Of a stretch of DNA of 39,269 nt, positions 187 through 39,179 are shown in pieces (the first letter of the stretch is position 1; every line of letters begins with the position of its first letter). The position numbers were made by a program, and so were the translations under genes. The notes beneath the pieces were generated by a model. The model was not told where the DNA came from. It did no database searches and was given only the letters and a program-made list of their open reading frames with translations. This stretch comes from a virus. Location of the stretch: IMG/VR virus record IMGVR_UViG_3300045988_084518, one strand, 5' to 3'.

Positions 187-3100
187 TTACCACACCTTCT
201 CTGACACTTCGAGTGCCTCGTACAAAAGGTGCTTTTGCTTTGTGCTTGCGCCTGGAACGGCCTTATCGATAGCGGCCTTCTTTTTGCGGCTGGAGGACAG
301 TTGGATTGTCTTCCCATCGCCGTCTTTGTCGCCTGTGATCCCACGGGCTGCGAAGTATGCGGCGTAGTATTGGTCGTAGGTAACGCCCTGTGCGACATAC
401 TCGGCTGCCTTTTCTCCGACATCCTTGTTGTATGTCTTTAGTGCGTACTCTGCACCGAACGCCTTGCGGTTTGCTTCGCGCTTAACAACATCGCTGTCTG
501 CACTTCCGATGCTCTTTGCGGTTTCCTCGTAGGTGCCAACGGTCAACAGGGCTTTTCTATAAATCTCGTTACGCAGCTCCAGCAGGTCACGAGCCTCGCT
601 CATCTTCTCCTTGCGGGTCTTTTCGCCGCTGTTGTAGATTTCCTTGAGCTGCTTCGTGATTTCGGATGCAGCCTTGCTCTGCTTATACAGGTAGGAGTAG
701 GTTGCATCATCGGCTGCTGTCGCAAACTCGGTCTCCTTTACCTGCTTGGCTTCGTCCAGCGCATCATAGAAGTCGCTGCCGAGCCGGTTCTGCCGGACGC
801 TATCAACGACAAACGCCTTTACCACCGCAGGGACATCAGCTTTCTTGGAAAGCGCCGGAAGCAACCAGTCGCCAATAAAGCCGGAATACTGGTCGATCAG
901 GTAATTGACCTTCTTCGGAGAAAGCCCTTCGATGCCGTTCTTCCCGTGTCGTGTAATCTCACCGAGCCAAATGGAGAACGCATCGGTGCTTTCATCGTAC
1001 TGCAGATAATCCGGTTTTTCCTCCATGTAACTGGATACGATGTCGCCGCCGTACCAGTTCTTGTTGGTCCTCATCGCATCAAACCCTGCAAAGATGTTAT
1101 TGGTCCGCGGGTTGTTCGGGGCAAGCTGTTCGATAGCGAAAGACGGATAACCGGCAAACGCGCTGCTTGCAGGTTCCCCTTTCAGCCAGCGCCACATCCG
1201 ATTGGTGAACGCCGTAATAACGGAAGGTTCACGGCCCATCGGAACCTTGATAAACTTATTGTCGCCGATTTTGATGAGGATGTTGCTGTCCTTGATGTAG
1301 TTGGAAAGCTCCTTGTAGTCATCGTCCTCTTTCAGCCCGTCATAAAGCAGACCCATAATGATACCGGGTGCCACGCCGTTGATAAGCAAGCGTGAGATCA
1401 GTTGTCCAATCTCTTTCCAGCCGCGCCGGTCAATGACATTGCGAATGTTCTTGGAAAGGCCCTGCATACCGGGGTTGAAGAAAGGCACAAGGGAAGCGTT
1501 CAGCTTGCGGGCAGCGAAGCCGCCACGCCCGAAGTTCGTTGTGATGTCTGCTGCATTATAGAGCGCCTGCTGCACATCGCCTGTGTCCTCCATCGTGCTG
1601 ATAAATTCAGCAAGTCGGGGGTACTGCTCGACCGCTTCATTGGCAAAGGAGAGGATGTCGATTACTCTATTCAACCCACCAGCCACTTTATCGACTGCAC
1701 CGTTTTTGAAATGGTAGCGGTCGGAAAGCCCCGACTTTGGGTCATAATAGGTAGTTCCTTTTCCGCCCATCGCCTGATAGAGCTGCCAATACTTCCCGTT
1801 CGTTGCGATTTCCTTTACGGCCTTGCCGTAGTTCTTAATGAATGTGGCATTGCTGTAATGGGTAAAGTACAATGCAGACTGTGCATCACGGACAAAATTT
1901 CGCACGATGAATACAGGGTTCCATTGCGTGACCAGCTTCTTGAATGTGCTGTTGATGGAGCGCAATGCTTTCATTCCAAAGGAATTGGATTGCTCAATGG
2001 GTCTAAACCCATCGGCCATTGCTTCACTCATGTGCAGAGTAACCGGTTTGCCATCCACCCAAATGCGCAGCGTGTTCTTGAGGTTCTCTGCGGAATCCGC
2101 ATCAAGGTCAACGAGATCGCCTTCCTCTGTAACACTCTGAATGTATTCCGAGATATCACGGGTAGTATCCATTGCATCTTCATACAGCATATTGCCCAGA
2201 ATGTTCTTTTTGGCTGCGGAGAAGGTCTGCAAGGTCTGCCTGGCAATACTGTCGATCAGCGGCATGATATCCTGGTTGCCACCTTTTGCGGACTTGATGG
2301 TGCTGTTCACCGCAACGATGTTGGGGTTGGAGTAGCCGCCGGAGGTGCTGGGCATATCGCGGTAGGTGGGAACATAGTGCGGATACAGTTCCTTCATGTA
2401 CTGTGCCATATCGGCGCTCACGAGTCCTCCCTGCTTTCGCACCTCCATCAATCCGTCAAGGTAGGCATACACATCCTTTGCCCACTTTTCAAATTCAGGG
2501 TGTGCATCCAGCAGGTCAGCTGCGGCGGCACGGCTATCGTCTGCGGTCACGCTGCTGCCGAACACAGGCTTGTCGAATTGCTTTTCAGCCCATGCCTGGA
2601 ACCGCTTATATTGCTTGGCGGCGGCAATCTGTGCCTCGGTGTAGGCTTTTGTAAGGGCAGTATCCTTGCCTGCGGCTGTGGAAATGTTCTCATCTGTCAT
2701 TTCCGCAAAGCCGTTGACTTCCCTGTTCAGTTTCGCCCGAAGTTCTGCAAGCTGCCGCTGCGCCTTTTCGCGTACACTCATGCGGTCTACATTGTGCTCG
2801 TGCAGCAGGTAGGTGTAAAACTCATCGGTCAAGCCAGCCTTTTTCGCCGGTTCAAATACCTGCATGAGGTTCTTATCGCCGATCTTCTTGCCGTTAAGGT
2901 CATACTGCCCTGCGCCGCCAATGGAATACTGCGCCGCCGCAGATGCCTGCCCGACATTGTTCGCTGCATACATGATTCTGCTGTCGCCGACTTCATTCCC
3001 GAATCGCTCCAGCTCATCCTTGGTATTGACTAACTGGCGCTTAATGGTGCGCCAGTCTTTGGCGACTTGCGCCTTAAAGGTTTCCTTGTCCTTCTTCGGC

Positions 3101-6100
3101 ATTTCGGTCAGAACCTTGGCAACATCTTCCGTAGTGGTGGATTTCTGTTCCGCCGTCCTCAATCTGGCTTTGCTCTTTGCCCGATCCTCCCGCACCACTC
3201 GGTCAATGCGGTCCTGCGTCCTCCGCCGGTTGAATTCGTCCTTTGCTTCGGACAGCTTTTCGTTGTACTTGTCCCGCATCTGCCGATTGTTCGCACGGAG
3301 GTCGGCACGGTATTGCTTGGCAAGTGCATCATATTTCGCCATGAATTCTGCACGGGCCTTTGCTGCCTTCTCTCGCTCTTTAGCCGCTGCTATTTCGGTG
3401 ATGAGTTTCGTCTCTGCATCACGCCAGCGGTCATTCATCTTCGCTTCCGCAGTTGCCTGCTGGCGATAGTCAGCAAGCTGCTGACGGATGTTCTTCACCT
3501 CGGCTTGTGCAGCCTTCAGCTCATCGTTTGCTTTCTCGGTTGCTTCGGAAACAACCCTGTCGATGTCGGCCATGTACTGGGCATCTTCCATGAGGGAGTA
3601 GCGGATGTCTTTGCTTTCTGTCGGAGCGGTATTGTCAATGTTCTTAAATTGACTACTGCCAAACGCCACATACACGTTGGCATTATCATATTTGCCCTCT
3701 ACAATGTATCCGTCATAACCAAGCGTGTTTCGAGCCGCTTCAAGAACGGTTCCGGAACCTGCTCCGCCGTTTGCAATCTCCGCAAGGATTTCGCTATCAC
3801 TATCGCTATATTCCATAGCTGCCTTTACGGTAGCATCCAGCGCACGGTTATACCATGCTTTTGAAGGGTACCCAATACCGCCGGCAGGGTCGTAATTCAC
3901 AAGCACTTCATCACCGGTCGGGTCAACAGCCTGTAAAAGTTTTTTTACTTCTGCCCTTGTCAGCGTAATCTCGCTATCGCTCAACGGCTTTTTGATATCA
4001 AGATACCCCTCAAGGAGTTGTCCGCCGTCCTTTTGGTAGCCCTCTGCCACCGGCTTGTAGTCAGTGAAATAGAAACCTTGCCCCTCGGAGCTGCCATGCT
4101 GGGACATGAAATCGGGGGAAAACTCGGTAAACACCGCCGGACTGCCATGATATACAGGTTTCAACCTGCCCTCTGCGTCAACGACTTTGGAGCCGAAGAA
4201 ATACTCCCGCTGCCCCGCAGAAAGCTCTCTGCCGGTGCTGTCGGTCGTCGGCATTTCCATAAGGGAAAGCTTTTCCTGTGCATTTTTTGCACCGGTTTGC
4301 ATAGAATGGGTATTGACAACATCAGTGTCTTGTGGTACATTGATGGTGTCGAAGTCAACCGCTGTGTTCCGCTCGGGCAATTGGAGCCCGATTCGATGAA
4401 GCAGCCGGTTGGCTTCTTTTTTGCTGTAGCCAAGCAAATTTCCCCGGAGCATTTGATCTGCAAGAAAGTCCCTGCTGTTTTCTTTTCCATACAGACTTGC
4501 CACTCTTGTTACAATATCAAAGCCATTGCTCCGGCTCAAGTGAAGCGCCACAACAACAGGGTTTCCATCGGAATCCGCTGTAGAGGTAACGATGACTGCT
4601 GCATTGGGGACAGTGCCCGATTTCAACAGAAGCACCGGCTTGTCCAGCATTTCCGGAAGTTTCAGCAAAACATTATCGGAAAGGCTGTGCCCATGGGTGT
4701 CAATCGTAGACTTCCTTTGGGCCTTTTCTACTACAGCCTGCATCATTACAATAGGCTCTTTCTTCATGCCGGCTGCCTGCAGATATTCCGATGTGTCATT
4801 GAGATAAAACAAGTCTCCACGCTTAAACCGGCCGGCTTTGTAGTCGGCAAACTGTTCCGCAAACGGGCGGTTGTTTTTCTCCACCGCCTCCTTCATCAGC
4901 GAATAAGATATCTTCCCCGCTTCTTCCGCCTCCGTTCTCCCCTCCATCCCATCAAGCAAAGCCTTCTGCGATTCGGACAGCCTGTTGTAGGCTTCCTGCG
5001 CAGAGGGCTTTCCTTTTAGCTTTTTGAGGATACGGTTCAAAAAACCTTTAATGCCGGTGGCCGCTTCCGTATTTCTTGCGCCTATGTACTCCAGCATATC
5101 CCGGCTGCCCAAAAGATCACCGCTGATATCGGCAGCGACTTCCTCCGCAGCTGCATCCGGGTCAAGCTCAATTCCATTGCGCTCGTACAGTTCGGTTTTG
5201 GCATTCATCATGCCCTTTACCATATCGGCATAGTCGGGGTTCTCTACCAGCGTATCAATCATCCCGGAATACTTGCTATCAGCTACAAGGTCGTGAAACA
5301 TCTCATGCCCGAAAGTAACCATCAGCGGATCGCGGGAATTGATGTTGACATAAATGGTGCCATCCGGTGCGCGATAGCCATTGGTCAGTCGGTACTGCCC
5401 ATTGACCTGCACCGCGCCCTCAAACCACACGATAGTCTTGCCAAGGTATTTCGCTGCATTGTTCACCTCGGCAACAGCTTTCTTTTTACTGCCGAGAATT
5501 TCAGCTTTCTTATAGCCGATCTCGGTATTGCCGCGCACATCGGTATTGGTGATCTCCTTGATACGGCGCTTGCCGTCTACATCGGTAATGGTGTTTTGCT
5601 CAACGGAAAGCCAGCGTTCACGGCTTTCCTGCTCAAGTACATCGGCTTCCGCTTCCGCTTTGGCTTCTAGTTCGGCAGTCGCCCTTTCTGCCGCTTCGGT
5701 CATGCGCTCCGTGTACTCCGCTTCGGATACGACCTGTCTGCCGGTCTCGCCCAGCTTCTTGGTCGTTACCTCGATGGCAGCAACATCCGCAGCAGGGTTT
5801 CCTGTGTACTCGATCCCTGCCAGCTTCGCAAAGGACTCTCTCGCAGCAGGGTCGTTGTAAACCTTCTGCGCTACGCTTTGGTTTGCAGGAGCGCCTTGAA
5901 TTGCGCTGTTGTAGGCGACTTCACCTGTATTGGCAGGATTATCTACCATCTGCACGAAAGCTTGCCCTACGCTATCCTGCGCTGTTTTAACAGCAGATTC
6001 CTCCTGCTTACTGAAAACCTCGGCCATAACCGATTCGGGAGTGGGTTTTACCCCCAATGTTTCCGCAGCTTGGACGATGGCGTTGGCGTTGTTCATCATC

Positions 6101-7560
6101 GCCTTCAGCTCTCGAATGGAAAGCTGTGTGATATCCCCTTGGATTTTGGAGAGGCCGCTTTCCGCATCGAAGGACTGGTTTGCTTCGAAAAGTCTGCCGA
6201 GCATCTGGGGGGTGGGCTTCTTCTGCGCTTCCGCTGCATAGATGGCAGGGGCTGTGCCTTCACCCTTGCCCAAGCCTTCCTCTATCTGCTGCTGGACTGC
6301 AGCGGGGGATTTCTTAAGGGTCTTGCCCAAGCGGTTATAGTTGACGGCTCGTGTCGCTGCGTTTGCACCGCCCAAAACACCGCCTGCGAGAGCGCCGAGG
6401 AGCATATCGTACCAGATGTTGTCCATCTCGTCACTTTCGCCCGTGAGCGCTTTCTCGATGGCATAGTTAACGACATCTTCGGCACCTTCCTCCAAGCCTT
6501 CCTCAAGGGGGACGCGCAGCAATTCGCCGCCGGTAGAAGTAGCCAATGCATAAATACCGGGGGCTTCGGACATCAGCTTTTTGGTTGCGGCTTGCCCCAG
6601 CTTTGTGCCGCCGAGTCTTCCGAACACACCGCCGATCTGCTCTGTGGTGTATGTTGCGGCTCCTGCGCCAAGACCGAGTGCAAATGCGAGATCGCCGTTG
6701 CCGTACTTCTCGTATGCGTCTGCATACTTGTGGCCGAGGGAGGATACCGACATCAGCAAAAGACCTGCCGCTGGTGATTTGGTAATTGCGGTCACAGCCG
6801 CAGGGATCGCCATGCCTGCAAGCGTTCCGGCAGTATCAAGGCCGAGACCTTCGAGAGTGCCTACACTCGCCCTGTCCTTTTCCCGCTTCAGCTCGGCAAC
6901 AGTCTTGTAATCTGTTATCGGCGCAGCGTCTTTCTTGACCACCCCGGAAGCCTCAAGCGCCTCCTTCGGGGAAACGCCCTTGTCCATAAGGTTCTTTGCG
7001 CTGGTTGCGGCTTGCCGATATGCCGCTTCGCCATCGCCCAGGTAGTGAGAGAGAACCCCTGCGCCCTGCATGAACGACTGGCCAAAGTCCTGCAACGAGG
7101 CCAATGTAGCAGTACCGGCCTTAAACTTGTTTTTGCTTGGGTCGTAGTCCTCGGTCGCTTCGATGTTCTTCTGTGTCTTATACTTGGTTTCCGCATTGAC
7201 GGAGTCGGTGTAGATACGGCTTGCAATGCCGAGCTGCTCTGCTTCCTCCTGCTTCATCCCGGCACGATGGTATGCCCCGGCCTTGATAAGGGCATCGTCA
7301 CGCTGCTTCTTCAGCGTATCGACATTCTGTTTCATGGTTTCGCTCTGCTTACGAGAAGAAGCCCCGGCAGGCGCAGCCTGTGCAGGCTGCGTGCCGGGAG
7401 AAAGAACAGTATGCTTAATCTCCTGCGAGCGGTATGGGGCCATTAAGTTTTCCATGTCGCTTGCGGAAACCTTTTTCGGGGAGCTGCCATCGCTGCGTGC
7501 GGTATTGTTGGAGTTTCCGTACATTAGGCCCTGCATTTCTTCGGCTGTTACCTTCCCCAT
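187..7560 (-). CDS. Giant (2457 aa) multi-domain virion-type 'polyvalent' protein: hydrophobic Gly/Ala segments + HExxH metallopeptidase + MuF-C-like segment + ART-like segment + coiled coil + ~1000-aa C-terminal region
   Basis: The ORF is uninterrupted over 7.4 kb. Start placed at ATG 7560 (AAGGAGG 5 nt upstream); the track start at 7644 has no SD. TFGHEMFHD is encoded at about nt 5290-5316. VYHGS...GQGFYFT...GYDGYIVEG...VAFGSSQFKN is encoded at about nt 3630-4160. A K/R/E-rich coiled coil is encoded at about nt 3050-3560. Confidence 0.7.
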   Translation of the reverse strand: MGKVTAEEMQGLMYGNSNNTARSDGSSPKKVSASDMENLMAPYRSQEIKHTVLSPGTQPAQAAPAGASSRKQSETMKQNVDTLKKQRDDALIKAGAYHRAGMKQEEAEQLGIASRIYTDSVNAETKYKTQKNIEATEDYDPSKNKFKAGTATLASLQDFGQSFMQGAGVLSHYLGDGEAAYRQAATSAKNLMDKGVSPKEALEASGVVKKDAAPITDYKTVAELKREKDRASVGTLEGLGLDTAGTLAGMAIPAAVTAITKSPAAGLLLMSVSSLGHKYADAYEKYGNGDLAFALGLGAGAATYTTEQIGGVFGRLGGTKLGQAATKKLMSEAPGIYALATSTGGELLRVPLEEGLEEGAEDVVNYAIEKALTGESDEMDNIWYDMLLGALAGGVLGGANAATRAVNYNRLGKTLKKSPAAVQQQIEEGLGKGEGTAPAIYAAEAQKKPTPQMLGRLFEANQSFDAESGLSKIQGDITQLSIRELKAMMNNANAIVQAAETLGVKPTPESVMAEVFSKQEESAVKTAQDSVGQAFVQMVDNPANTGEVAYNSAIQGAPANQSVAQKVYNDPAARESFAKLAGIEYTGNPAADVAAIEVTTKKLGETGRQVVSEAEYTERMTEAAERATAELEAKAEAEADVLEQESRERWLSVEQNTITDVDGKRRIKEITNTDVRGNTEIGYKKAEILGSKKKAVAEVNNAAKYLGKTIVWFEGAVQVNGQYRLTNGYRAPDGTIYVNINSRDPLMVTFGHEMFHDLVADSKYSGMIDTLVENPDYADMVKGMMNAKTELYERNGIELDPDAAAEEVAADISGDLLGSRDMLEYIGARNTEAATGIKGFLNRILKKLKGKPSAQEAYNRLSESQKALLDGMEGRTEAEEAGKISYSLMKEAVEKNNRPFAEQFADYKAGRFKRGDLFYLNDTSEYLQAAGMKKEPIVMMQAVVEKAQRKSTIDTHGHSLSDNVLLKLPEMLDKPVLLLKSGTVPNAAVIVTSTADSDGNPVVVALHLSRSNGFDIVTRVASLYGKENSRDFLADQMLRGNLLGYSKKEANRLLHRIGLQLPERNTAVDFDTINVPQDTDVVNTHSMQTGAKNAQEKLSLMEMPTTDSTGRELSAGQREYFFGSKVVDAEGRLKPVYHGSPAVFTEFSPDFMSQHGSSEGQGFYFTDYKPVAEGYQKDGGQLLEGYLDIKKPLSDSEITLTRAEVKKLLQAVDPTGDEVLVNYDPAGGIGYPSKAWYNRALDATVKAAMEYSDSDSEILAEIANGGAGSGTVLEAARNTLGYDGYIVEGKYDNANVYVAFGSSQFKNIDNTAPTESKDIRYSLMEDAQYMADIDRVVSEATEKANDELKAAQAEVKNIRQQLADYRQQATAEAKMNDRWRDAETKLITEIAAAKEREKAAKARAEFMAKYDALAKQYRADLRANNRQMRDKYNEKLSEAKDEFNRRRTQDRIDRVVREDRAKSKARLRTAEQKSTTTEDVAKVLTEMPKKDKETFKAQVAKDWRTIKRQLVNTKDELERFGNEVGDSRIMYAANNVGQASAAAQYSIGGAGQYDLNGKKIGDKNLMQVFEPAKKAGLTDEFYTYLLHEHNVDRMSVREKAQRQLAELRAKLNREVNGFAEMTDENISTAAGKDTALTKAYTEAQIAAAKQYKRFQAWAEKQFDKPVFGSSVTADDSRAAAADLLDAHPEFEKWAKDVYAYLDGLMEVRKQGGLVSADMAQYMKELYPHYVPTYRDMPSTSGGYSNPNIVAVNSTIKSAKGGNQDIMPLIDSIARQTLQTFSAAKKNILGNMLYEDAMDTTRDISEYIQSVTEEGDLVDLDADSAENLKNTLRIWVDGKPVTLHMSEAMADGFRPIEQSNSFGMKALRSINSTFKKLVTQWNPVFIVRNFVRDAQSALYFTHYSNATFIKNYGKAVKEIATNGKYWQLYQAMGGKGTTYYDPKSGLSDRYHFKNGAVDKVAGGLNRVIDILSFANEAVEQYPRLAEFISTMEDTGDVQQALYNAADITTNFGRGGFAARKLNASLVPFFNPGMQGLSKNIRNVIDRRGWKEIGQLISRLLINGVAPGIIMGLLYDGLKEDDDYKELSNYIKDSNILIKIGDNKFIKVPMGREPSVITAFTNRMWRWLKGEPASSAFAGYPSFAIEQLAPNNPRTNNIFAGFDAMRTNKNWYGGDIVSSYMEEKPDYLQYDESTDAFSIWLGEITRHGKNGIEGLSPKKVNYLIDQYSGFIGDWLLPALSKKADVPAVVKAFVVDSVRQNRLGSDFYDALDEAKQVKETEFATAADDATYSYLYKQSKAASEITKQLKEIYNSGEKTRKEKMSEARDLLELRNEIYRKALLTVGTYEETAKSIGSADSDVVKREANRKAFGAEYALKTYNKDVGEKAAEYVAQGVTYDQYYAAYFAARGITGDKDGDGKTIQLSSSRKKKAAIDKAVPGASTKQKHLLYEALEVSEKVW

Positions 7561-7570
7561 TTTGCCCTCC

Positions 7571-8338
7571 TTATCCATAGCGGCGGTTCCAAATGTCGGC
7601 TGCCTGCTCACTCGTGTATCCGAGTTTTGCCATTGCCTGTGCAAATGCCCTAATGTCGCCCGTGTCGGTTACCTTTGTGCCGGTTATAGTCTTAACGCCG
7701 GGGGCTTTTGCAACCCCTGCGGAGTAACTGGCCTGTGCGTTCATCTTGCCGGTCTGCGGCTCACGGTTCGCATTCAGCATATCGAGGTAGGCACGGCTCA
7801 CAGCATCGGAGTAGTCGCTGTCACCTTCGGCAAGGCTGCGGTTGTAGCGGTTGTTCAGCTTGACATAGGATGTTTCTGCAAGGCCGCCGTTGATGCCCTC
7901 ACGGGCCAGCTGCCCGGGGAGGTTCTTTAGCGCCATCTCTTTGGCAATGTACGCCCTGCGTGCATTGTCCTCCCGCTGCTGGGCCGCCTGTTTCTGCTGG
8001 GCCTCATACATCTGCTGGTTGTATGCAAGGAGCTGGTCATAGGCAGCGGTCTGTGCATCGAGCTGGGCTTTCAGCGAAGCGAGGTAGCTGTTCCGTTCGC
8101 TTGCGTCTTGGTAGGAATACGGGGTCTCGGTCGTTCTTCCGAGAGACCCTGCTGCGGTTTCAAGGAGGTTGAGCCGAGAGCTGTCGTTTCGCCAGGAATT
8201 CGCCAGGTCTTTCCCAGACAATCCGAGTACGGTTCCTGCCCCGTGCGCCCGAATAGAATTCGATACACCTTCACCAACACGGGGGTTGGGCTTGCTTCCA
8301 CCGTCATTCACCATGTTCATGTTGCTTCTATTCGCCAT
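7571..8338 (-). CDS. Hypothetical late protein (255 aa), Gln/Ala-rich coiled-coil centre; possibly virion/ejection-associated
   Basis: ATG 8338 is preceded by AAGGAGGGG and lies 1 nt after the amidase stop. The gene sits between the lysis genes and the giant gene. No recognisable motif. Confidence 0.5.
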   Translation of the reverse strand: MANRSNMNMVNDGGSKPNPRVGEGVSNSIRAHGAGTVLGLSGKDLANSWRNDSSRLNLLETAAGSLGRTTETPYSYQDASERNSYLASLKAQLDAQTAAYDQLLAYNQQMYEAQQKQAAQQREDNARRAYIAKEMALKNLPGQLAREGINGGLAETSYVKLNNRYNRSLAEGDSDYSDAVSRAYLDMLNANREPQTGKMNAQASYSAGVAKAPGVKTITGTKVTDTGDIRAFAQAMAKLGYTSEQAADIWNRRYG

Positions 8339-22789: not shown

Positions 22790-23623
22790 TCACCACACAA
22801 CCGTGATACGCTTATCGCCGTGCTTATTGCACCCTAACAGCAATGTCTGTGGCTGCTCTGCATCGCTCTCTGCGCTGGGGAGTAGCATCTTGCGTGCTGC
22901 GTAACCGCCGTAATGCTGCCATGCTGTGCAACTTACCACTACCAATTGCTTTGTAGTCACCTTGTTGTTTTTGCTGTCCACCACGATCTTTTTGGGCTTG
23001 GATACCGTCCCCTTGTGGGTATGGCCTACTATCAATGCATCAATGCCCTCGATCGTGTTTGCAAACCGCTCGTTGCGATTGACTGTTGCGCCTGTATATA
23101 TTCCGCCGCCGGAGCCGTGTGTTACGGCCATCGTGTAGGTCACCAGCGATGAGTCCCTGTTGGTGCGTGTCCCAAGCTGTAGCTTGACAAATGCCACATC
23201 CTCTGCATATCTGTCCTCCAAGTCCAGCTTGCACATGATGTCGCCCATGATATCCTGGTCGGTGTCCTTAACCGTCCTTGCCTCGTGGTTGCCGGATACT
23301 GCGCACAGGATTTTGTTTTTGATCGGTGTCAGCATCTCCACCATCAGCTTTTTTTGCTCCCTCGGTCGCAGATAGTCCTCAAACGGGCTGCCTGCGGCAT
23401 GGCGGGTGTTGTTATTGATTAAATCCCCGCCGAGGATCACATAGGCATCCTCTGCTTCCACACGGCGGCAGAAGTTTTCCCACCCAACTTTGTCATGCAG
23501 GATGCTCCCAAGATGCACATCCGATACGGGATATATCTTTGCGGCCTTTCCCGGCAGCCTGTGGCATATCAAATCCAATGGTTTTACCTCCTTCTGTGCA
23601 ATATGCTGTATTTTCCGTTTCAT
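22790..23623 (-). CDS. Calcineurin-like metallophosphoesterase
   Basis: Ordered motifs DVHLG, GGDLIN, GNHE and GHTH. ATG 23623 lacks an SD; the alternative TTG 23578 has AAGGAGGT 7 nt upstream. Confidence 0.8.
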   Translation of the reverse strand: MKRKIQHIAQKEVKPLDLICHRLPGKAAKIYPVSDVHLGSILHDKVGWENFCRRVEAEDAYVILGGDLINNNTRHAAGSPFEDYLRPREQKKLMVEMLTPIKNKILCAVSGNHEARTVKDTDQDIMGDIMCKLDLEDRYAEDVAFVKLQLGTRTNRDSSLVTYTMAVTHGSGGGIYTGATVNRNERFANTIEGIDALIVGHTHKGTVSKPKKIVVDSKNNKVTTKQLVVVSCTAWQHYGGYAARKMLLPSAESDAEQPQTLLLGCNKHGDKRITVVW

Positions 23624-23638
23624 ATTTGTGAATGTTTA

Positions 23639-23667
23639 TATATAAAAACTATTTACATACCGCACAA
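23639..23667 (-). promoter_or_regulatory. Candidate promoter for the late operon (TTGTGC-17-TATATA)
   Basis: -35 at 23667->23662 and -10 at 23644->23639, read on the minus strand. It overlaps the divergent plus-strand promoter. Confidence 0.4.
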
Positions 23668-23680
23668 TGTGTGGTACAAT
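23652..23680 (+). promoter_or_regulatory. Sigma-A-type promoter of the plus-strand island (TTTACA-17-TACAAT with TGn extension)
   Basis: -35 at 23652-57, a 17-nt spacer, TGg at 23672-74 and -10 at 23675-80, about 60 nt upstream of ATG 23740. Confidence 0.6.
23658..23676. promoter_or_regulatory. Operator-like inverted repeat TACCGCACA-A-TGTGTGGTA
   Basis: 8 of 9 positions pair between the arms. The repeat occupies the spacer of the plus promoter and covers the -35 of the minus promoter. Confidence 0.5.
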
Positions 23681-23739
23681 AAAGACAGTAAGAGGGCAGC
23701 AGCCCAGACCGAGACCGCCCAGCAGCGCAGGAGGATAAT

Positions 23740-24303
23740 ATGAAAATGACAGCGCAGGAGCTTATCAAAGAGTACGACATCTATCTGGCCACCGAATATG
23801 TAGCGGGCAAGGAAGTCGTCACCGGCAATCTTCGCATCGCCAGAGGCGACATAGCTAACCGCCGGGGCGATATCGCCACCATCCGTGATGCAAAGCAGGA
23901 GATCATCGATATCCTGATGGCAGAGCGGGATGCGGCTCAAAAGGCCATCAAGGACCGTGCAGACAAAGTCAATGCGATCCCCGGCCTCGCCGAGATTCTC
24001 GCCGCAAAGCAAGACCTCGCAAACTGGAATCACGAGTTTATGTCCAGCTTCGATGGGGAGGGTGGCGGCGGCGTAGGGGTTCGGGAGAAGCCCAATTACG
24101 ATTTCCCAGCGATGCTCGCCAAGTACCCCAAGGCAAATGCTTACCTGCAGGCAAAGGACTTTGCAGACTCCGACAACATCGCAAAGTCTGAAGCAGGCCA
24201 AAAGGCGCTGGATGCCATCATCAATGGTGATGATTACAACGCAGCAATCGTGACCATGGAGGCCGAGTGGAGCGAGTATTGCACCAAGCACCTTTGGGAT
24301 TAA
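23740..24303 (+). CDS. Hypothetical acidic protein (187 aa), first gene of the plus-strand island
   Basis: GGAGG RBS. Normal amino-acid composition, unlike the Cys/Leu-rich antisense ORF. No recognisable motif. Confidence 0.6.
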   Translation: MKMTAQELIKEYDIYLATEYVAGKEVVTGNLRIARGDIANRRGDIATIRDAKQEIIDILMAERDAAQKAIKDRADKVNAIPGLAEILAAKQDLANWNHEFMSSFDGEGGGGVGVREKPNYDFPAMLAKYPKANAYLQAKDFADSDNIAKSEAGQKALDAIINGDDYNAAIVTMEAEWSEYCTKHLWD

Positions 24304-24315
24304 CCGACCTAATAC

Positions 24316-24331
24316 CCCCGCTTCGGCGGGG
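24316..24331 (+). other. Intergenic GC hairpin with a UUCG tetraloop (copy 1)
   Basis: CCCCGC-TTCG-GCGGGG, located 13 nt after the stop codon. No U-tract follows. Confidence 0.6.
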
Positions 24332-24362
24332 AAACAACCAAAAACACAGGAGGATATATATC

Positions 24363-24584
24363 ATGACAAAGTATGTAAAAACCATCTGGTACGCTGTTAT
24401 GCGAGATCTCGACGATCAGGACTGGGGCACCGGCAGTACCCGCAAGCGTGAGGCCATCGCCATGCGAAACAGGATGCGCAGAGATGGGGACAAGGACGCC
24501 TACATCGTAGTGATCGAGGAGCTGCGAGTCGGCTCCCGCAATGGCCCTGTGCAGGACGCTGTGGCCATCGGCGGCGTCGAGTAA
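24363..24584 (+). CDS. Hypothetical small protein (73 aa)
   Basis: Start at ATG 24363 (GGAGG upstream). Sequence begins MTKYVKTIWYAVMRDLDDQDWGTGS... No recognised domain. Confidence 0.55.
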   Translation: MTKYVKTIWYAVMRDLDDQDWGTGSTRKREAIAMRNRMRRDGDKDAYIVVIEELRVGSRNGPVQDAVAIGGVE

Positions 24585-24590
24585 TCAACA

Positions 24591-24610
24591 TCCCCCGCTT
24601 CGGCGGGGGA
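24591..24610 (+). other. Intergenic GC hairpin with a UUCG tetraloop (copy 2)
   Basis: TCCCCCGC-TTCG-GCGGGGGA, located 7 nt after the stop codon. Nearly identical to copy 1, including the flanking AAAC. Confidence 0.6.
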
Positions 24611-24633
24611 AACCCCATGCCAAGGAGGACATT

Positions 24634-24966
24634 ATGAATATCTATCAAACCATCTGCGAGGACGCACTTGCAAGCCATGGGCGTGACGCATTTGTCAGCG
24701 GCTGGGCCATGTCCGGCGCATTTGAGGGGGGCCCAGATCAGGAGCGCATCGAGATGGTAGGTGCCATCTATGATGCTATGCATCGCAGCGTCAAGGACAT
24801 CGCATCCGCAGCCGGGATGAGCCAGCGCAAGCTGGCCGAGCGGTTCCTGATCCCTTACCGTACCATGGAGAGCTGGTGTGGTGGACAAAGATCCTGCAAC
24901 GATTACACCCGCATCATGATGCAGCAGCTCCTTGGCCTTATGCCAACACCGGAGCAGCTACGCTAA
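24634..24966 (+). CDS. HTH DNA-binding protein (111 aa), terminal gene of the island (Aca-like position)
   Basis: Start at ATG 24634 (AAGGAGG). The C-terminal half, MSQRKLAERFLIPYRTMESWCGGQRSCNDYTRIMMQQLL, is a typical helix-turn-helix. Confidence 0.65.
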   Translation: MNIYQTICEDALASHGRDAFVSGWAMSGAFEGGPDQERIEMVGAIYDAMHRSVKDIASAAGMSQRKLAERFLIPYRTMESWCGGQRSCNDYTRIMMQQLLGLMPTPEQLR

Positions 24967-24968
24967 AC

Positions 24969-25002
24969 AAAAAAGAGCAGGCAGAAATGCTTGCTCTTTT
25001 TT
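24969..25002. terminator. Bidirectional intrinsic terminator
   Basis: 9-bp stem GAGCAGGCA-GAAA-TGCTTGCTC (24975-24996) flanked by A6 and T6. It closes the plus island and, on the other strand, the early operon/tRNA transcript. Confidence 0.8.
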
Positions 25003-25077
25003 GATCCCCATGTAAAATGCCGAAGCCAAAACTGCGGGGGAAGTTTTTTGTCAAGGAGGTTTGTCAAAAGGAGAGAA

Positions 25078-25152
25078 TGGAGCACCCGGTAGGATTTGAA
25101 CCCACAGCCAGCTGATTACAAATCAGCCGCTCTACCATTGAGCTACGGGAGC
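25078..25152 (-). tRNA. Phage-encoded tRNA-Thr (anticodon UGU), 75 nt with encoded CCA
   Basis: Manual cloverleaf: GCTCCCG-TA-GCTC-AATGGTA-GAGC-G-GCTGA-TTTGTAA-TCAGC-TGGCT-GTGGG-TTCAAAT-CCTAC-CGGGTGC-T-CCA. There is a U3:U70 mismatch in the acceptor stem. Confidence 0.85.
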
Positions 25153-25250
25153 AGGTTGCCGGGATAAGCCCGGCGTTGCTGTATGGGCTTCGCCCATTAT
25201 ATATTATAATCTATTTTCCCCTGTTTTTTGTCCCGCATTTGTCCCAAGTT

Positions 25251-25691
25251 TTACAGCTCGGTCACACCGTATCGGCAAATGGTATATCTCTTGATGGCCT
25301 CGTCCATCCTGCGGTACAGCTCCGACCTGCTGATGTGCAGCTCGTCACATAATCTGTCGATGGCATTGTACTCCCGCCGCATGACGGCCACCTCAAGTAT
25401 CCTGCGCTGCTGGTCGGTCAATATCGACAACCCACGATCCATCTGCCGCACTTGCCACTTAACCAGCTCGTGATTGACGGTTAGGTTGTCCCTATTGCAG
25501 ATGGCGTTTATGATGCGCTCCTCGGCGGTCGAGCTGCCGCCCTGTACAGGTGTGGCATCCATTTTGGGCGACCTGATGCCCTCCATTCTGTCGGTCAGCA
25601 TATCGATCTCGTCCTGCAGGCTGTCGATGGCCATCAGCTTTTCGTAATACCTGCCAAGCTCCCTCTTACAGACTTTTTTATAGTCGGTCAT
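25251..25691 (-). CDS. Sigma-70 region-4-like late transcription regulator (DUF1492/ArpU/RinA-like)
   Basis: Coiled N-terminus followed by LTDQQRRILEVAVMRREYNAIDRLCDELHISRSELYRRMDEAIKRY (sigma r4-type HTH). It is the last protein gene of the early operon. Confidence 0.6.
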   Translation of the reverse strand: MTDYKKVCKRELGRYYEKLMAIDSLQDEIDMLTDRMEGIRSPKMDATPVQGGSSTAEERIINAICNRDNLTVNHELVKWQVRQMDRGLSILTDQQRRILEVAVMRREYNAIDRLCDELHISRSELYRRMDEAIKRYTICRYGVTEL

Positions 25692-32716: not shown

Positions 32717-32986
32717 TTAATACGGTCGTATATCCTGTTCTGCTTCTTCGAAATACTTGTCTCCATCAAGGTACGCGTCAATCTTCTTGATCTCTCCCGT
32801 CTCGTACTCATCGAGGAGGTCACTGATGTGGTCGTCAATGCACTGGTCACAGGATACGATTTCATCGGTCAAACGGCGCACATAGATGTCTCCGTGAATT
32901 TCCGCTTTGCAGACAGGGCAGTACCGATGCACCCAGTCCATGTAGTCGTCCGGCCAGATGGCATCCGGCACATATATCGGGGTCAT
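32717..32986 (-). CDS. Small zinc-finger hypothetical protein (89 aa)
   Basis: Contains CPVC...CDQC. ATGA coupling to the upstream gene. Confidence 0.5.
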   Translation of the reverse strand: MTPIYVPDAIWPDDYMDWVHRYCPVCKAEIHGDIYVRRLTDEIVSCDQCIDDHISDLLDEYETGEIKKIDAYLDGDKYFEEAEQDIRPY

Positions 32987-33891
32987 GCCTCAATCACCTC
33001 TCCATCCACGAGCTTATAAAACACGCCGGGCTTTATGGTCTCTCCGTCCACCTTTACCGCTCGCACCTCTTTAATGGGGTAAGTATCACCGTTCCAGCCA
33101 CCCCTATCGGTTAGGACAAGCCAGCATCCAATGGCGCCGGATGCCTTACTATCAACTCCGGTGACGATTGCAATAGACTCCTTTCCATCAACAGTGGCTG
33201 CGCTACAGTTGCCGGTGTTGGTGGCTGTGCTCCACTTGCCGGTGTTGGTGGCTGCGCTACGGTAGCCGGTGTTTGTGGCTGCGCTCCACTTGCCGGTGTT
33301 GGTGGCTGCGCTCCACTTGCCGGTGTTGGTGGCTGCGCTACAGTAGCCGGTGTTTGTGGCTGCGCTCCACTTGCCGGTGTTGGTGGCTGCGCTCCACTTG
33401 CCGGTGTTGGTGGCTGCGCTACAGTCGCCGGTGTTTGTGGCTGCGCTACAGTCGCCGGTGTTTGTGGCTGCGCTACAGTTGCCGGTGTTGGTGGCTGCGC
33501 TACAGTTGCCGGTGTTGGTGGCTGCGCTACAGTTGCCGGTGTTGGTGGCTGCGCTACAGTAGCCGGTCTGATTGTCGCTGCTTTCGGCTCTTTCCTTTAT
33601 GTACTCAACCGCAGCTTTTGCAATACCAGCGATACCGATCTCCGCCCGGAGCTTTATTTTCGTTCCGGCTCGCTTGCTGTCGCCTTTTGCTTCGTCCGTC
33701 ACACCGTCAAGATCGGCCTCGAAAAACCGGCTATTTGCAGGGTTGTAATAAGAGAACACATCCAGCGGGTATTCACATCCATGGAAACCTTTATTGCATA
33801 GTTCCGCTTCCCCCTCCACATATTCTTTGCCAAGCTCGAATTGGAAGCCTCGGCATTTCATATCCTTATCGGTGCCTTTGTACACCAACAC
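32983..33891 (-). CDS. DUF7666-like protein with 14 tandem 9-aa xxSAATNTG repeats (302 aa)
   Basis: GTG start with AAAGGAGG 8 nt upstream. N-terminus MLVYKGTDKDMKCRGFQFELGKEY...GFHGCEYPLDVFSYY. Repeat block, then C-terminus ...WLVLTDRG...VDGETIKPGVFYKLVDGEVIE. Confidence 0.6.
   Translation of the reverse strand: MLVYKGTDKDMKCRGFQFELGKEYVEGEAELCNKGFHGCEYPLDVFSYYNPANSRFFEADLDGVTDEAKGDSKRAGTKIKLRAEIGIAGIAKAAVEYIKERAESSDNQTGYCSAATNTGNCSAATNTGNCSAATNTGNCSAATNTGDCSAATNTGDCSAATNTGKWSAATNTGKWSAATNTGYCSAATNTGKWSAATNTGKWSAATNTGYRSAATNTGKWSTATNTGNCSAATVDGKESIAIVTGVDSKASGAIGCWLVLTDRGGWNGDTYPIKEVRAVKVDGETIKPGVFYKLVDGEVIEA
33184..33561. repeat. 27-bp tandem repeat array, 14 units, in-frame coding repeats
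   Basis: Units GCTGCGCT(A/C)CA(G/C)T(T/A/C)GCCGGTGTT(G/T)GTG are contiguous, with no spacers between them. Confidence 0.9.
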
Positions 33892-38030: not shown

Positions 38031-39179
38031 ATGCTCTGTAAGAAGTGCAAAAAGGAATTACAGGATGATTGGCTCTACTGCCCTTGGTGCGGTTTGAACG
38101 CAAAAAAGCCGCCAAAGCAGACGATGTACCGCAGGAAGGACGGCCTGTACGAGAAGAAGGTCACGATAGACGGCAAAAGAATAGCGTTTCGTGCCAAAAC
38201 GGAAAGGGAAGTAATCCAGAAAATCGCTGCATATTCAGCTGATGCAAAAAGTGAAACAACAGCTCTGTTCAAGAAGTATGCGGAAGACTTGGAACGGTCT
38301 TGGGACGAGCTTGCATATAACACCCTGCGAAGCTATAAGCCTGCGCTGAAAAGATGTGTCGATTACTTCGGGGATATGCCTGTCGGGGACATCACGCCGT
38401 ATAGCATCTCCCTGTTCCTCTCCAAGATGGCCACCACCTATTCGCAGAAGACGATAAAAAACCACTTGAGCATGATTTCGCAGACGCTCGATCTCGCAGT
38501 CATGAATAATGAGATCGCCACAAACCCCGCATCCATCAAGTATAAGCCGACCGGGAAGAAGCCGGTCAAGCGCAAGGAGGCCGCCGAGCAGTACGCCGAA
38601 GTCATCAGACAATACTGGGGCGAAAGCCTGTACTCATGGCTGGCGTACTTCCTACTGAACACTGGTCTGCGAAAAGGCGAGGCGCTGGCTCTCCAGTACA
38701 GGGACATCGATATGGAGGAAAACATCATCTCCGTTTCCAAGAGTGTGTACTTCATCAGCGATAACCCTTACATCAAGGAGCCGAAGACCTCCGCCGGGAT
38801 ACGGCTGGTTATCCTCCCGCTGTGCGTGAAGGAAAAGCTGAAGCCAGGCAAGCCGAATGATTATATCTTCTCCACGGGTGGGAAACCACTGCACGAGCAT
38901 CAGATCGATGCCGGATGGGATAGGTTCTGCAAGGCTCACGACATGGGCGAATGGATAAAAGGTGCAGGAGGAAAAAACCGATTCAAACCGGCGGTCACCT
39001 TCCACCAGCTCCGGCACTACTACGCCACCAAAGGCTCGGAACTTGGCATACCACGAGAAGTCATGACAGAGCTGATGGGGCATTCCTCTTATATCGTTAC
39101 GGAAAACTACACACATATTCGAAAGGCTGCGCTGCAATCCGCTGCGGAAAAAATCAATGGCACAGAAATGGCACAGTGA
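38031..39179 (+). CDS. int: Tyrosine recombinase / phage integrase with an N-terminal zinc ribbon
   Basis: CKKC...CPWC at the N-terminus. SAM-like core-binding region. Catalytic pattern LRKGEALAL (R), HQLRHYYAT (HxxR), GHSS (H) and ENYTH (Y). Adjacent to attR. Confidence 0.92.
   Translation: MLCKKCKKELQDDWLYCPWCGLNAKKPPKQTMYRRKDGLYEKKVTIDGKRIAFRAKTEREVIQKIAAYSADAKSETTALFKKYAEDLERSWDELAYNTLRSYKPALKRCVDYFGDMPVGDITPYSISLFLSKMATTYSQKTIKNHLSMISQTLDLAVMNNEIATNPASIKYKPTGKKPVKRKEAAEQYAEVIRQYWGESLYSWLAYFLLNTGLRKGEALALQYRDIDMEENIISVSKSVYFISDNPYIKEPKTSAGIRLVILPLCVKEKLKPGKPNDYIFSTGGKPLHEHQIDAGWDRFCKAHDMGEWIKGAGGKNRFKPAVTFHQLRHYYATKGSELGIPREVMTELMGHSSYIVTENYTHIRKAALQSAAEKINGTEMAQ
39157..39176 (+). repeat. 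Tandem ATGGCACAG-AA-ATGGCACAG, 11-bp period: putative integrase arm-type sites (right arm)
   Basis: Same 9-mer pair as 131-150. It lies in the last codons of int, 39 bp from the att repeat. Confidence 0.5.

Follow-up and report, generated by a model that had tools for sequence, protein, structure and literature searches.

The record IMGVR_UViG_3300045988_084518 of the IMG/VR database, a stretch of 39,269 nucleotides (nt) that is referred to below as the window, carries a phage of ~39 kb and ~53% GC, which is considered to be temperate because an integrase is encoded at 38031-39179. Its genes are carried on the minus strand from ~36.4 kb down to 0.2 kb, with the exception of a small island of three plus-strand genes, which is the subject of this analysis. 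This opposed orientation was pointed out in an initial annotation of the sequence and is confirmed by the gene coordinates and by the reversal of the sign of the GC and AT skews, which occurs across ~23600-25100 only. The first open reading frame (ORF) of the island, ORF1 (23740-24303, plus strand), encodes 187 amino acids (aa) with an isoelectric point (pI) of 4.8; ORF2 (24363-24584, plus strand) encodes 73 aa with a pI of 8.1; and ORF3 (24634-24966, plus strand) encodes 110 aa. The first two sizes are those of the initial annotation, which gave 111 aa for the third. An AGGAGG sequence is found 6-9 nt ahead of the ATG in each of the three genes.

The near-consensus, host-type promoter proposed for the island is found at 23652-23680 (plus strand) and is of the sigma-A/sigma-70 type: a −35 element, TTTACA (23652-23657), is separated by a 17-nt spacer from a TG-extended −10 element, TACAAT (23675-23680), giving a match to the consensus at 10 of 12 positions plus the TG upstream of the −10. 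The inverted repeat that had been reported inside this promoter is a 15-bp palindrome, CCGCACA-A-TGTGTGG (23660-23674, both strands), which fills the spacer, has arms that are complementary at 6 of 7 positions, and is the predicted operator for a dimer of ORF3. A generalised promoter-plus-palindrome pattern has one match in the window and none in 100 shuffles, and no second operator-like site above chance is present in the window. The 5' leader (23681-23739, plus strand) has its AGGAGG 7 nt ahead of the ATG of ORF1, and transcription is predicted to start at ~23685-23688. At the other end of the island, at 24968-25003, lies an inverted repeat, A6 - GAGCAGGCA GAAA TGCTTGCTC - T6, which is an intrinsic terminator active on both strands by prediction, with folding energies of -23.6 kcal/mol (z-score, z, -6.6) on the plus strand and -19.4 kcal/mol (z -3.8) on the minus strand; the strong bidirectional terminator of the initial annotation therefore has a stable fold on either strand.

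The third gene had been described as encoding a helix-turn-helix (HTH) protein, and this description holds on the basis of structure prediction. Pfam gives sub-threshold matches to ORF3 (HTH_psq, E 7e-4; also HTH_3, which is weak in the homologue from contig L001), and the protein matches phrog_25567 (E 7e-9), a family of unknown function. In its AlphaFold model (predicted local distance difference test, pLDDT, 92.8), an N-terminal helical extension of ~45 aa precedes a C-terminal HTH domain of the XRE/Cro-C1 type, in which the recognition helix is followed by a W-x-x-G turn. Foldseek matches this model to 3bs3, HigA, C.AhdI, HipB, Aca1, and lambda cI with probabilities of 0.9-1.0 over 53-79 columns, and HigA2 is also among the best matches; the E-values are weak (0.06-1), and those for Aca1 (0.4-0.9) are at the general XRE level. 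By sequence, an ORF3-family profile finds no relative below E 0.04 among solved protein chains, Aca1 included. The closest folds are dimeric operator-binding regulators. The family consists of proteins of 110-116 aa from gut metagenomes with an invariant core, RKLAERFxxPYxTxExW, and a recognition helix that is nearly invariant. ORF3 is probably an Aca-like (that is, anti-CRISPR-associated) autorepressor, with a predicted dimeric binding to the operator.

Coupling of regulator and operator across phages

The association between ORF3 and the palindrome was examined in two directions. In the forward direction, the loci of ORF3 relatives were taken from 33 viral contigs and seven genomes (of Oscillospiraceae, Faecousia, Lachnospiraceae, and other Clostridia), plus contigs found earlier, which gave 50 sources. 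In 45 of these, the ORF3 homologue is preceded, on the same strand, by a promoter with a palindromic spacer. A strict pattern accounts for 35 sources, invariably ahead of the HTH gene and in the same orientation, and has no match in the other orientation; eight more come from a relaxed pattern and two, close relatives with degenerate repeats, from alignment. Examples are TTGACA-TA-CCACCGAATCGGTGG-TATAAT in contig L010 and TTGACG-TA-CCACTCAACGGGTGG-TATAAT in contig L001. Among the 26 operator variants, the three inner arm positions are symmetric in 58 of 78 cases, compared with a chance expectation of 25%. These positions differ freely from phage to phage, and a paired change of the half-sites is what would be expected of a site bound by a dimer.

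The reverse test is independent of the forward one, in that it starts from the DNA motif TTGACA-NN-CCAC-N7-GTGG-TATAAT, with its 22 fixed bases. The strict motif, which would occur by chance essentially never, matches at least 120 viral contigs. Among the matches with enough downstream sequence, the share that have an ORF3-family gene downstream on the same strand grows with the quality of the palindrome: 34 of 39 when all seven arm positions are complementary, 23 of 30 with six of seven, 9 of 29 with five of seven, and 0 of 6 with four of seven, where the fixed bases alone pair. A negative control is provided by contig L005, in which a homologue of ORF1 is accompanied by a ribbon-helix-helix regulator instead of an ORF3-type one, and in which the promoter has no palindrome. 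These comparisons demonstrate, at the level of sequence, that the ORF3-type regulator and the operator are coupled and have been inherited together over dozens of phages. The initial annotation proposed the HTH protein as a marker for neighbouring small genes, and such a search does indeed find variable small genes beside ORF3 relatives across many cassettes.

The geometry of the promoter bears on the sign of the regulation. MerR-type activators act at promoters with spacers of 19-20 nt, so the 17-nt spacer of the island is more in keeping with repression than with activation. This spacer, the single operator in the window, and the absence of the palindrome in L005 make other regulatory readings less satisfactory.

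The first ~15-16 nt of the leader (AAAGACAGTAAGAGGG, 23681-23696) are also kept across distant cassettes, both ORF3-type cassettes and those regulated by a ribbon-helix-helix protein (L054 and L057), which suggests that they correspond to the start of the transcript or to a leader element. A consensus AAAGACAGTnAAGrG is found at the same position after the −10 in L010, L019, L039, L040, L048, L049, and L054. In some contigs, two operator-bearing promoters occur 0.7-6.5 kb apart on the same strand (L034, at 135 and 2337; L160; L165; L172; L216; L240), which suggests tandem cassettes.

The only homologue of ORF3 from a cultured organism in the collections searched, and the only one found in a plasmid search, is on the replicon pCY360 of Butyrivibrio proteoclasticus B316 (NC_014389.1, ~116634-117070). 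This gene (4950-5390 of locus L254) encodes an ORF3-like protein of 128 aa that is annotated as hypothetical and could provide an experimental model; in the same locus, CCACCGAAACGGCGG is found immediately ahead of a TATAAT, with a MobA gene nearby. Among deposited phage genomes, nucleotide and protein searches returned only unannotated human faecal phage contigs.

Cargo exchange and insertion at a hotspot

Four viral contigs share the backbone of the window, with flanks that are ~90-94% identical, and their comparison reveals what is exchanged. In L013, the island is as in the window; in L014, ORF1 is kept and an unrelated acidic gene of 61 aa takes the place of ORF2; in L012, this 61-aa gene is alone between the promoter and ORF3; and in L015, a different acidic gene, of 68 aa, is alone in that position. 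Similarity breaks off where the first cargo gene begins, at its start codon (23742-23745), and resumes at 24583-24589, immediately ahead of a hairpin (see below) and of ORF3. The genes between promoter and regulator are, by these alignments, an exchangeable cargo.

A census of 80 non-identical cassettes, for which the figures are approximate because of crude ORF calling, gives 136 cargo ORFs in 65 sequence clusters, of which 39 are singletons, and 51 gene architectures, usually with one to three cargo genes (range 0-6). The median length of the cargo ORFs is 106 aa, and the pI is below 5.5 in 64 of the 136. Recurrent cargo comprises the ORF1 and ORF2 families, several small acidic families, and a DUF7666/collagen-repeat protein. 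Cysteine-rich proteins also occur in or right after certain cassettes (L001, 6905-7549; L005, 7031-7675; L010, 4836-6011); they have a repeat, GQxFGRLxV...W.C.C.CG...V...L..G...SCGC, and in some cases an AP2-like C-terminus, and they match PHROGs labelled HNH endonuclease.

The two proteins encoded upstream of ORF3 had been recognised as nothing known, and they keep that status, with no match for ORF1 or ORF2 in Pfam, PHROG, PADLOC, or NCBIfam. In line with a suggestion in the initial annotation, ORF1 was compared by Foldseek: its AlphaFold model is confident (pLDDT 91.5), no PDB structure matches it by fold or, with a family profile, by sequence, and, in predicted viral structures, a single uncharacterised protein has a matching fold. 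The conserved C-terminal half of ORF1 includes a GEGGGGVGVRPKP loop. The family is large and phage-associated, and its members are also found in cassettes with other regulators, such as that of L005; the longer members contain no informative domain fusion, with Phage_Gp111 in one and a sub-threshold DUF3450 in another. For ORF2, which has no match among PDB sequences, only five homologues were found, which have in common the motif WYAVxxDxDDxDWGTGS; other cassettes contain homologues of it.

One ORF2 homologue, of 74 aa and 53% identity, occurs in another setting, contig L053 (1-4225), in a series of small genes that are located downstream from a DUF3846 gene and an ArdC-like gene (ArdcN plus MPTase-PolyVal); we take these surroundings to be an anti-restriction type of neighbourhood. 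The DUF7666 domain is the cargo of ORF3-type cassettes in L023, L024, L026, and L028, with an ORF2 homologue adjoining it in three of them, and a DUF7666 protein of 302 aa (E 3e-30) is also encoded in the early region of the window (32983-33891, minus strand). The 119-aa neighbour of the latter gene was considered as a possible relative of ORF2 and proved to be unrelated.

The two intergenic gaps of the island contain near-identical, GC-rich hairpins with a UUCG loop, which were missed in the initial annotation. The first, CCCCCGC-UUCG-GCGGGG (24315-24332, plus strand), has a folding energy of -13.5 kcal/mol (z -2.95), and the second, UCCCCCGC-UUCG-GCGGGGGA (24591-24610, plus strand), one of -18.0 kcal/mol (z -3.25). 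The second is located just past the right-hand breakpoints of cargo exchange. In the lineage of the window, a hairpin follows every cargo gene, with compensatory variants such as CCCCCAC-TTCG-GTGGGG in L015. These hairpins are not terminators because no U tract follows them. It might be speculated that they stabilise or process the mRNA, reduce the expression of the downstream regulator, or serve as short homologies for exchange. The possibility that they form a universal boundary of such cassettes was rejected: among the 34 cassettes scanned, they recur in the window lineage only, in a scan that undercounts, as it missed the second hairpin of the window itself. Nor are these gene cassettes of the integron type, since the hairpins of 18-20 nt, confined in that scan to the window lineage, do not qualify as attC sites, and no integrase is adjacent, that of the phage being 13 kb away. 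No RNA family in Rfam matches within the island.

The flanking genes are those of the initial annotation (late regulator, tRNA, and late operon), and all are on the minus strand. On one side is a metallophosphoesterase gene (22790-23623, minus strand; phrog_7339), with the genes for the small terminase, the large terminase, and the portal on the same side and strand; on the other side are a tRNA-Thr(TGT) gene (25078-25152, minus strand) and, beyond it, a gene for a DUF1492 (ArpU/RinA-like) regulator (25251-25691, minus strand). Among 80 viral contigs that encode the metallophosphoesterase, 76 also have the DUF1492 regulator, and in 61 of these 76 the site is empty: the distance between the two genes is then 367-372 bp, which accommodates only the tRNA-Thr and hairpins, as against 1627 bp in the window. 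The site is occupied in six of the seven contigs in which the metallophosphoesterase is 94-98% identical to that of the window; in the seventh, L056, the regulator was not found. Four of the six occupied sites contain ORF3-type cassettes, and two (L054, ~3985-5000, and L057, ~3981-5000, both on the minus strand of those loci) contain a different cassette at the same site as 23624-25250 of the window, between neighbouring genes that are 94-97% identical. This cassette has a promoter (TTGACA-17 nt-TATAAT) with a TGTATATACA palindrome, a gene encoding 88 aa, and a gene encoding a protein of 146 aa with a ribbon-helix-helix N-terminus; it shares the leader start (AAAGACAGTAAAGG) and the terminator with the window and has no tRNA.

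In unrelated phages, the cassette is found elsewhere: beside the terminase genes in L001 and at the prophage end in L007, L009, and L010, where it has the lysis genes on one side and the integrase or host DNA on the other. Flanking contexts were read from called genes, as the crude ORF caller is unreliable in GC-rich DNA. The empty site in most relatives and the varied sites in unrelated phages indicate that the island is a mobile accessory unit inserted at a hotspot, in agreement with the accessory insertion proposed by the initial annotation.

Readings of the island and its likeness to known systems

The island is probably a self-contained, negatively autoregulated accessory operon that is built like an anti-CRISPR (acr)-aca locus. 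Once the phage DNA enters the cell, host RNA polymerase with the housekeeping sigma factor would fire the promoter at 23652-23680, and a single mRNA of ~1.3 kb, ending at the 24968-25003 terminator, would encode ORF1, ORF2, and ORF3. A dimer of ORF3 would then bind the palindrome between the −35 and −10 elements and block the polymerase, so that the promoter would probably be shut off by the product of the operon's own last gene, and infection would lead to a burst of expression followed by shut-down. In the lysogen, the same promoter would fire at a low steady level. ORF1 and ORF2 would be the exchangeable cargo of a frame, consisting of promoter, operator, and regulator, that related phages retain. 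DNA binding, repression, and timing, like the function of the cargo, we infer from the sequence comparisons. For the cargo itself, an action against host defence or in host takeover has somewhat less than an even chance of being right, and anti-defence is a reasonable hypothesis rather than a finding. A broader proposal, which can be advanced only tentatively, is that the ORF3 family and the CCAC-N7-GTGG operator constitute a new frame for the expression of counter-defence genes in phages of Oscillospiraceae and other gut Clostridia, that many of the 65 or more cargo families, ORF1 included, are new immune inhibitors, and that the UUCG hairpins are boundaries for exchange or processing.

Several observations count against this interpretation. 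There is an overlap between GTGG, the right arm, and the −16/extended −10 element that is common in Gram-positive promoters, so this arm may owe part of its conservation to a role in the promoter; such an explanation does not cover the left arm or the symmetry of the inner positions. The palindrome is degenerate in two close relatives, with four of seven positions complementary in L013 and five of seven in L014. ORF2 is basic, and the ORF1 family is widespread, conserved, and not fast-evolving: searching with a profile retrieves 867 clusters (50% identity), including 559 with E <= 1e-10. Some of the cargo of relatives consists of zinc-ribbon/AP2-like DNA-binding proteins or collagen-like repeat proteins. 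Finally, no cargo similar to a known anti-CRISPR, anti-restriction, or defence protein was found in the window or in the 80 related cassettes, the cargo of sister cassettes having been compared with Pfam and PHROGs, and ORF2 together with 26 small cargo proteins with PDB sequences. A match to AcrIF24 (E 0.023) that was obtained from a concatenate of these 27 small proteins is spurious, as it spans an artificial linker.

An alternative, to which we give roughly one chance in a handful, is that the island is a moron for lysogenic conversion, with most of its expression coming from the prophage at a level set by autoregulation, and that its cargo benefits the lysogen, for example in phage exclusion or in host physiology. 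In favour of this alternative, the island is equipped with a promoter and a terminator of its own and is read in the opposite direction to the late genes, only some relatives carry it (61 of 76 sites being empty), the phage has an integrase and would form lysogens, and sister cassettes lie at prophage ends, where morons are usually located. However, the cargo proteins are small, often acidic, and soluble as judged by eye, with no membrane protein of the exclusion type seen among them; ORF1-3 match no defence-system model; and an autorepressed, near-consensus promoter fits a burst on infection at least equally well. The moron explanation and that of an acr-aca-like operon are inseparable by sequence alone. 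Lambdoid morons of the HK97/HK022 type are usually single genes without a dedicated autorepressor. The island resembles them in being an independent unit between backbone genes that has its own promoter and terminator and is absent from relatives; it differs in having a conserved promoter-regulator frame that accepts varied cargo, and its base composition is not distinct (GC of 0.50-0.56 within the island compared with 0.51-0.57 in the flanks).

Another possible role for ORF3 and the cargo would be the control of phage development itself, such as that of the divergent late operon. The metallophosphoesterase-terminase operon begins 29 bp from the −35 of the island (region 23624-23740), back to back with the island promoter, and, since the bidirectional terminator separates this operon from the DUF1492 regulator and the tRNA, its promoter must lie in or overlap the promoter-operator region of the island and might overlap the operator. 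Moreover, the cargo of relatives includes DNA-binding families (zinc-ribbon/AP2 and GerE-like HTH), and bidirectional regulation is reported for Aca11 and Aca13 (PMC12282945). Yet a consensus scan of 23624-23740 reveals no promoter on the minus strand; 61 of 76 relatives have the same late genes without the island, which is consequently dispensable for development; and the same type of cassette is found at quite different places in other phages. This developmental role is improbable. A type II toxin-antitoxin system in reverse order, of the HigBA or MqsRA kind, in which a toxin would be encoded upstream and ORF3 would be both antitoxin and repressor, would account for the gene order, with an XRE-type HTH gene last and a palindrome in the promoter, and for the presence of the antitoxins HigA, HigA2, and HipB among the best fold matches of ORF3. 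An antitoxin must, however, recognise its own toxin, and ORF3 proteins that are 79-92% identical serve unrelated cargo (187 plus 73 aa in the window, 61 aa in L012, and 68 aa in L015); in addition, the number of cargo genes varies from 0 to 6, many of the cargo proteins are acidic, and no toxin family or fold was detected in the cargo. This makes such a system very improbable.

The acr-aca operons, to which the island is compared, combine a strong promoter whose core contains an inverted repeat with small variable genes and, at the end, a gene for an HTH autorepressor (PMC9410906). With the operons of Aca1 (Pseudomonas phage JBD30) and Aca2 (Pectobacterium phage ZF40) (PMC9410906), the island shares a near-consensus promoter with an inverted repeat in its core, one to three variable genes of small size ahead of a gene for a small HTH protein, and a location in accessory hotspots of temperate phages; ORF3 belongs to the XRE class, as does Aca1, and the exchange of XRE-type and ribbon-helix-helix-type regulators at one site, or beside the same cargo, parallels the existence of different Aca families. 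ORF3 is the final gene of the island, and in the sister cassettes that were inspected its homologues take the final or penultimate position. The differences are that the cargo resembles no known Acr, that ORF3 has no significant match to solved proteins and has the additional N-terminal helical part, that the hosts here are Oscillospiraceae and other Clostridia, and that the island has a single operator, exactly in the 17-nt spacer, with repression and anti-defence being predictions. The acr/aca reading of the initial annotation has thus gained comparative support for the layout, whereas the part that concerns the cargo has found none in the form of homology to known anti-defence proteins, as neither upstream gene shows similarity to an Acr in Pfam, PHROGs, PADLOC, NCBIfam, or the PDB.

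Another comparison is with the Listeria prophage loci regulated by AcrIIA1 (PMC9410906), which are likewise accessory loci of Firmicutes prophages with an HTH autorepressor and variable neighbours, and the sister cassettes in L007, L009, and L010 resemble them in position too. In Listeria, the HTH domain is part of the Acr protein, whereas here the regulator is separate and usually encoded last; no relationship by sequence was found. Loci of that type lie near the lysis genes or the prophage end, and their HTH is encoded early in the operon. The C proteins of restriction-modification systems (C.AhdI and C.Esp1396I) are also small XRE-type HTH dimers, as predicted for ORF3, that bind a palindrome in their own promoter, and they figure among the best fold matches of ORF3; their gene, however, comes first and controls a nuclease gene, and the island encodes no nuclease or methyltransferase.

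The island would therefore be an autorepressed accessory operon of the acr-aca type, a kind already known, with a regulatory architecture that is supported by comparison over more than 100 phage contigs; for the ORF3 regulator family and its operator, we could not find an earlier description. Known Aca markers are mostly from Proteobacteria, Listeria, and Streptococcus, and, to our knowledge, phages of the gut Clostridia, which are strict anaerobes and hard to culture, have yielded few described anti-defence genes. If the proposed autoregulation is correct, a 29-bp DNA motif and a small HTH family would together provide a search handle that already leads to at least 120 viral contigs and ~65 families of small proteins of unknown function, and the regulator and operator would open a testable route to many such proteins in poorly studied phages. 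The operon would also offer a compact, autoregulated promoter-repressor pair for use in Clostridia. If the cargo serves the lysogen instead, the same handle would catalogue the lysogenic-conversion genes of gut prophages.

Other inserts at the hotspot and other window genes

The site between the tRNA-Thr and metallophosphoesterase genes also receives inserts of other kinds. A skipping-rope RNA (RF02924, 47-49 bits compared with a gathering threshold of 36.7) is located there in L061 (4448-4542) and L113 (4682-4776), and other long non-coding inserts without a match to an Rfam family are present at the hotspot in L065 and L066. In L105 (~4563-5000), the tRNA-Thr is broken near the anticodon by ~80 nt and is not called by ARAGORN; this interruption could be an intron or an insertion.

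Outside the island, the window also encodes a DNA methyltransferase, a G39P-like helicase loader, and a Rad52-like protein, and the minus strand of its late end has an open reading frame of 2485 aa at 187-7644.

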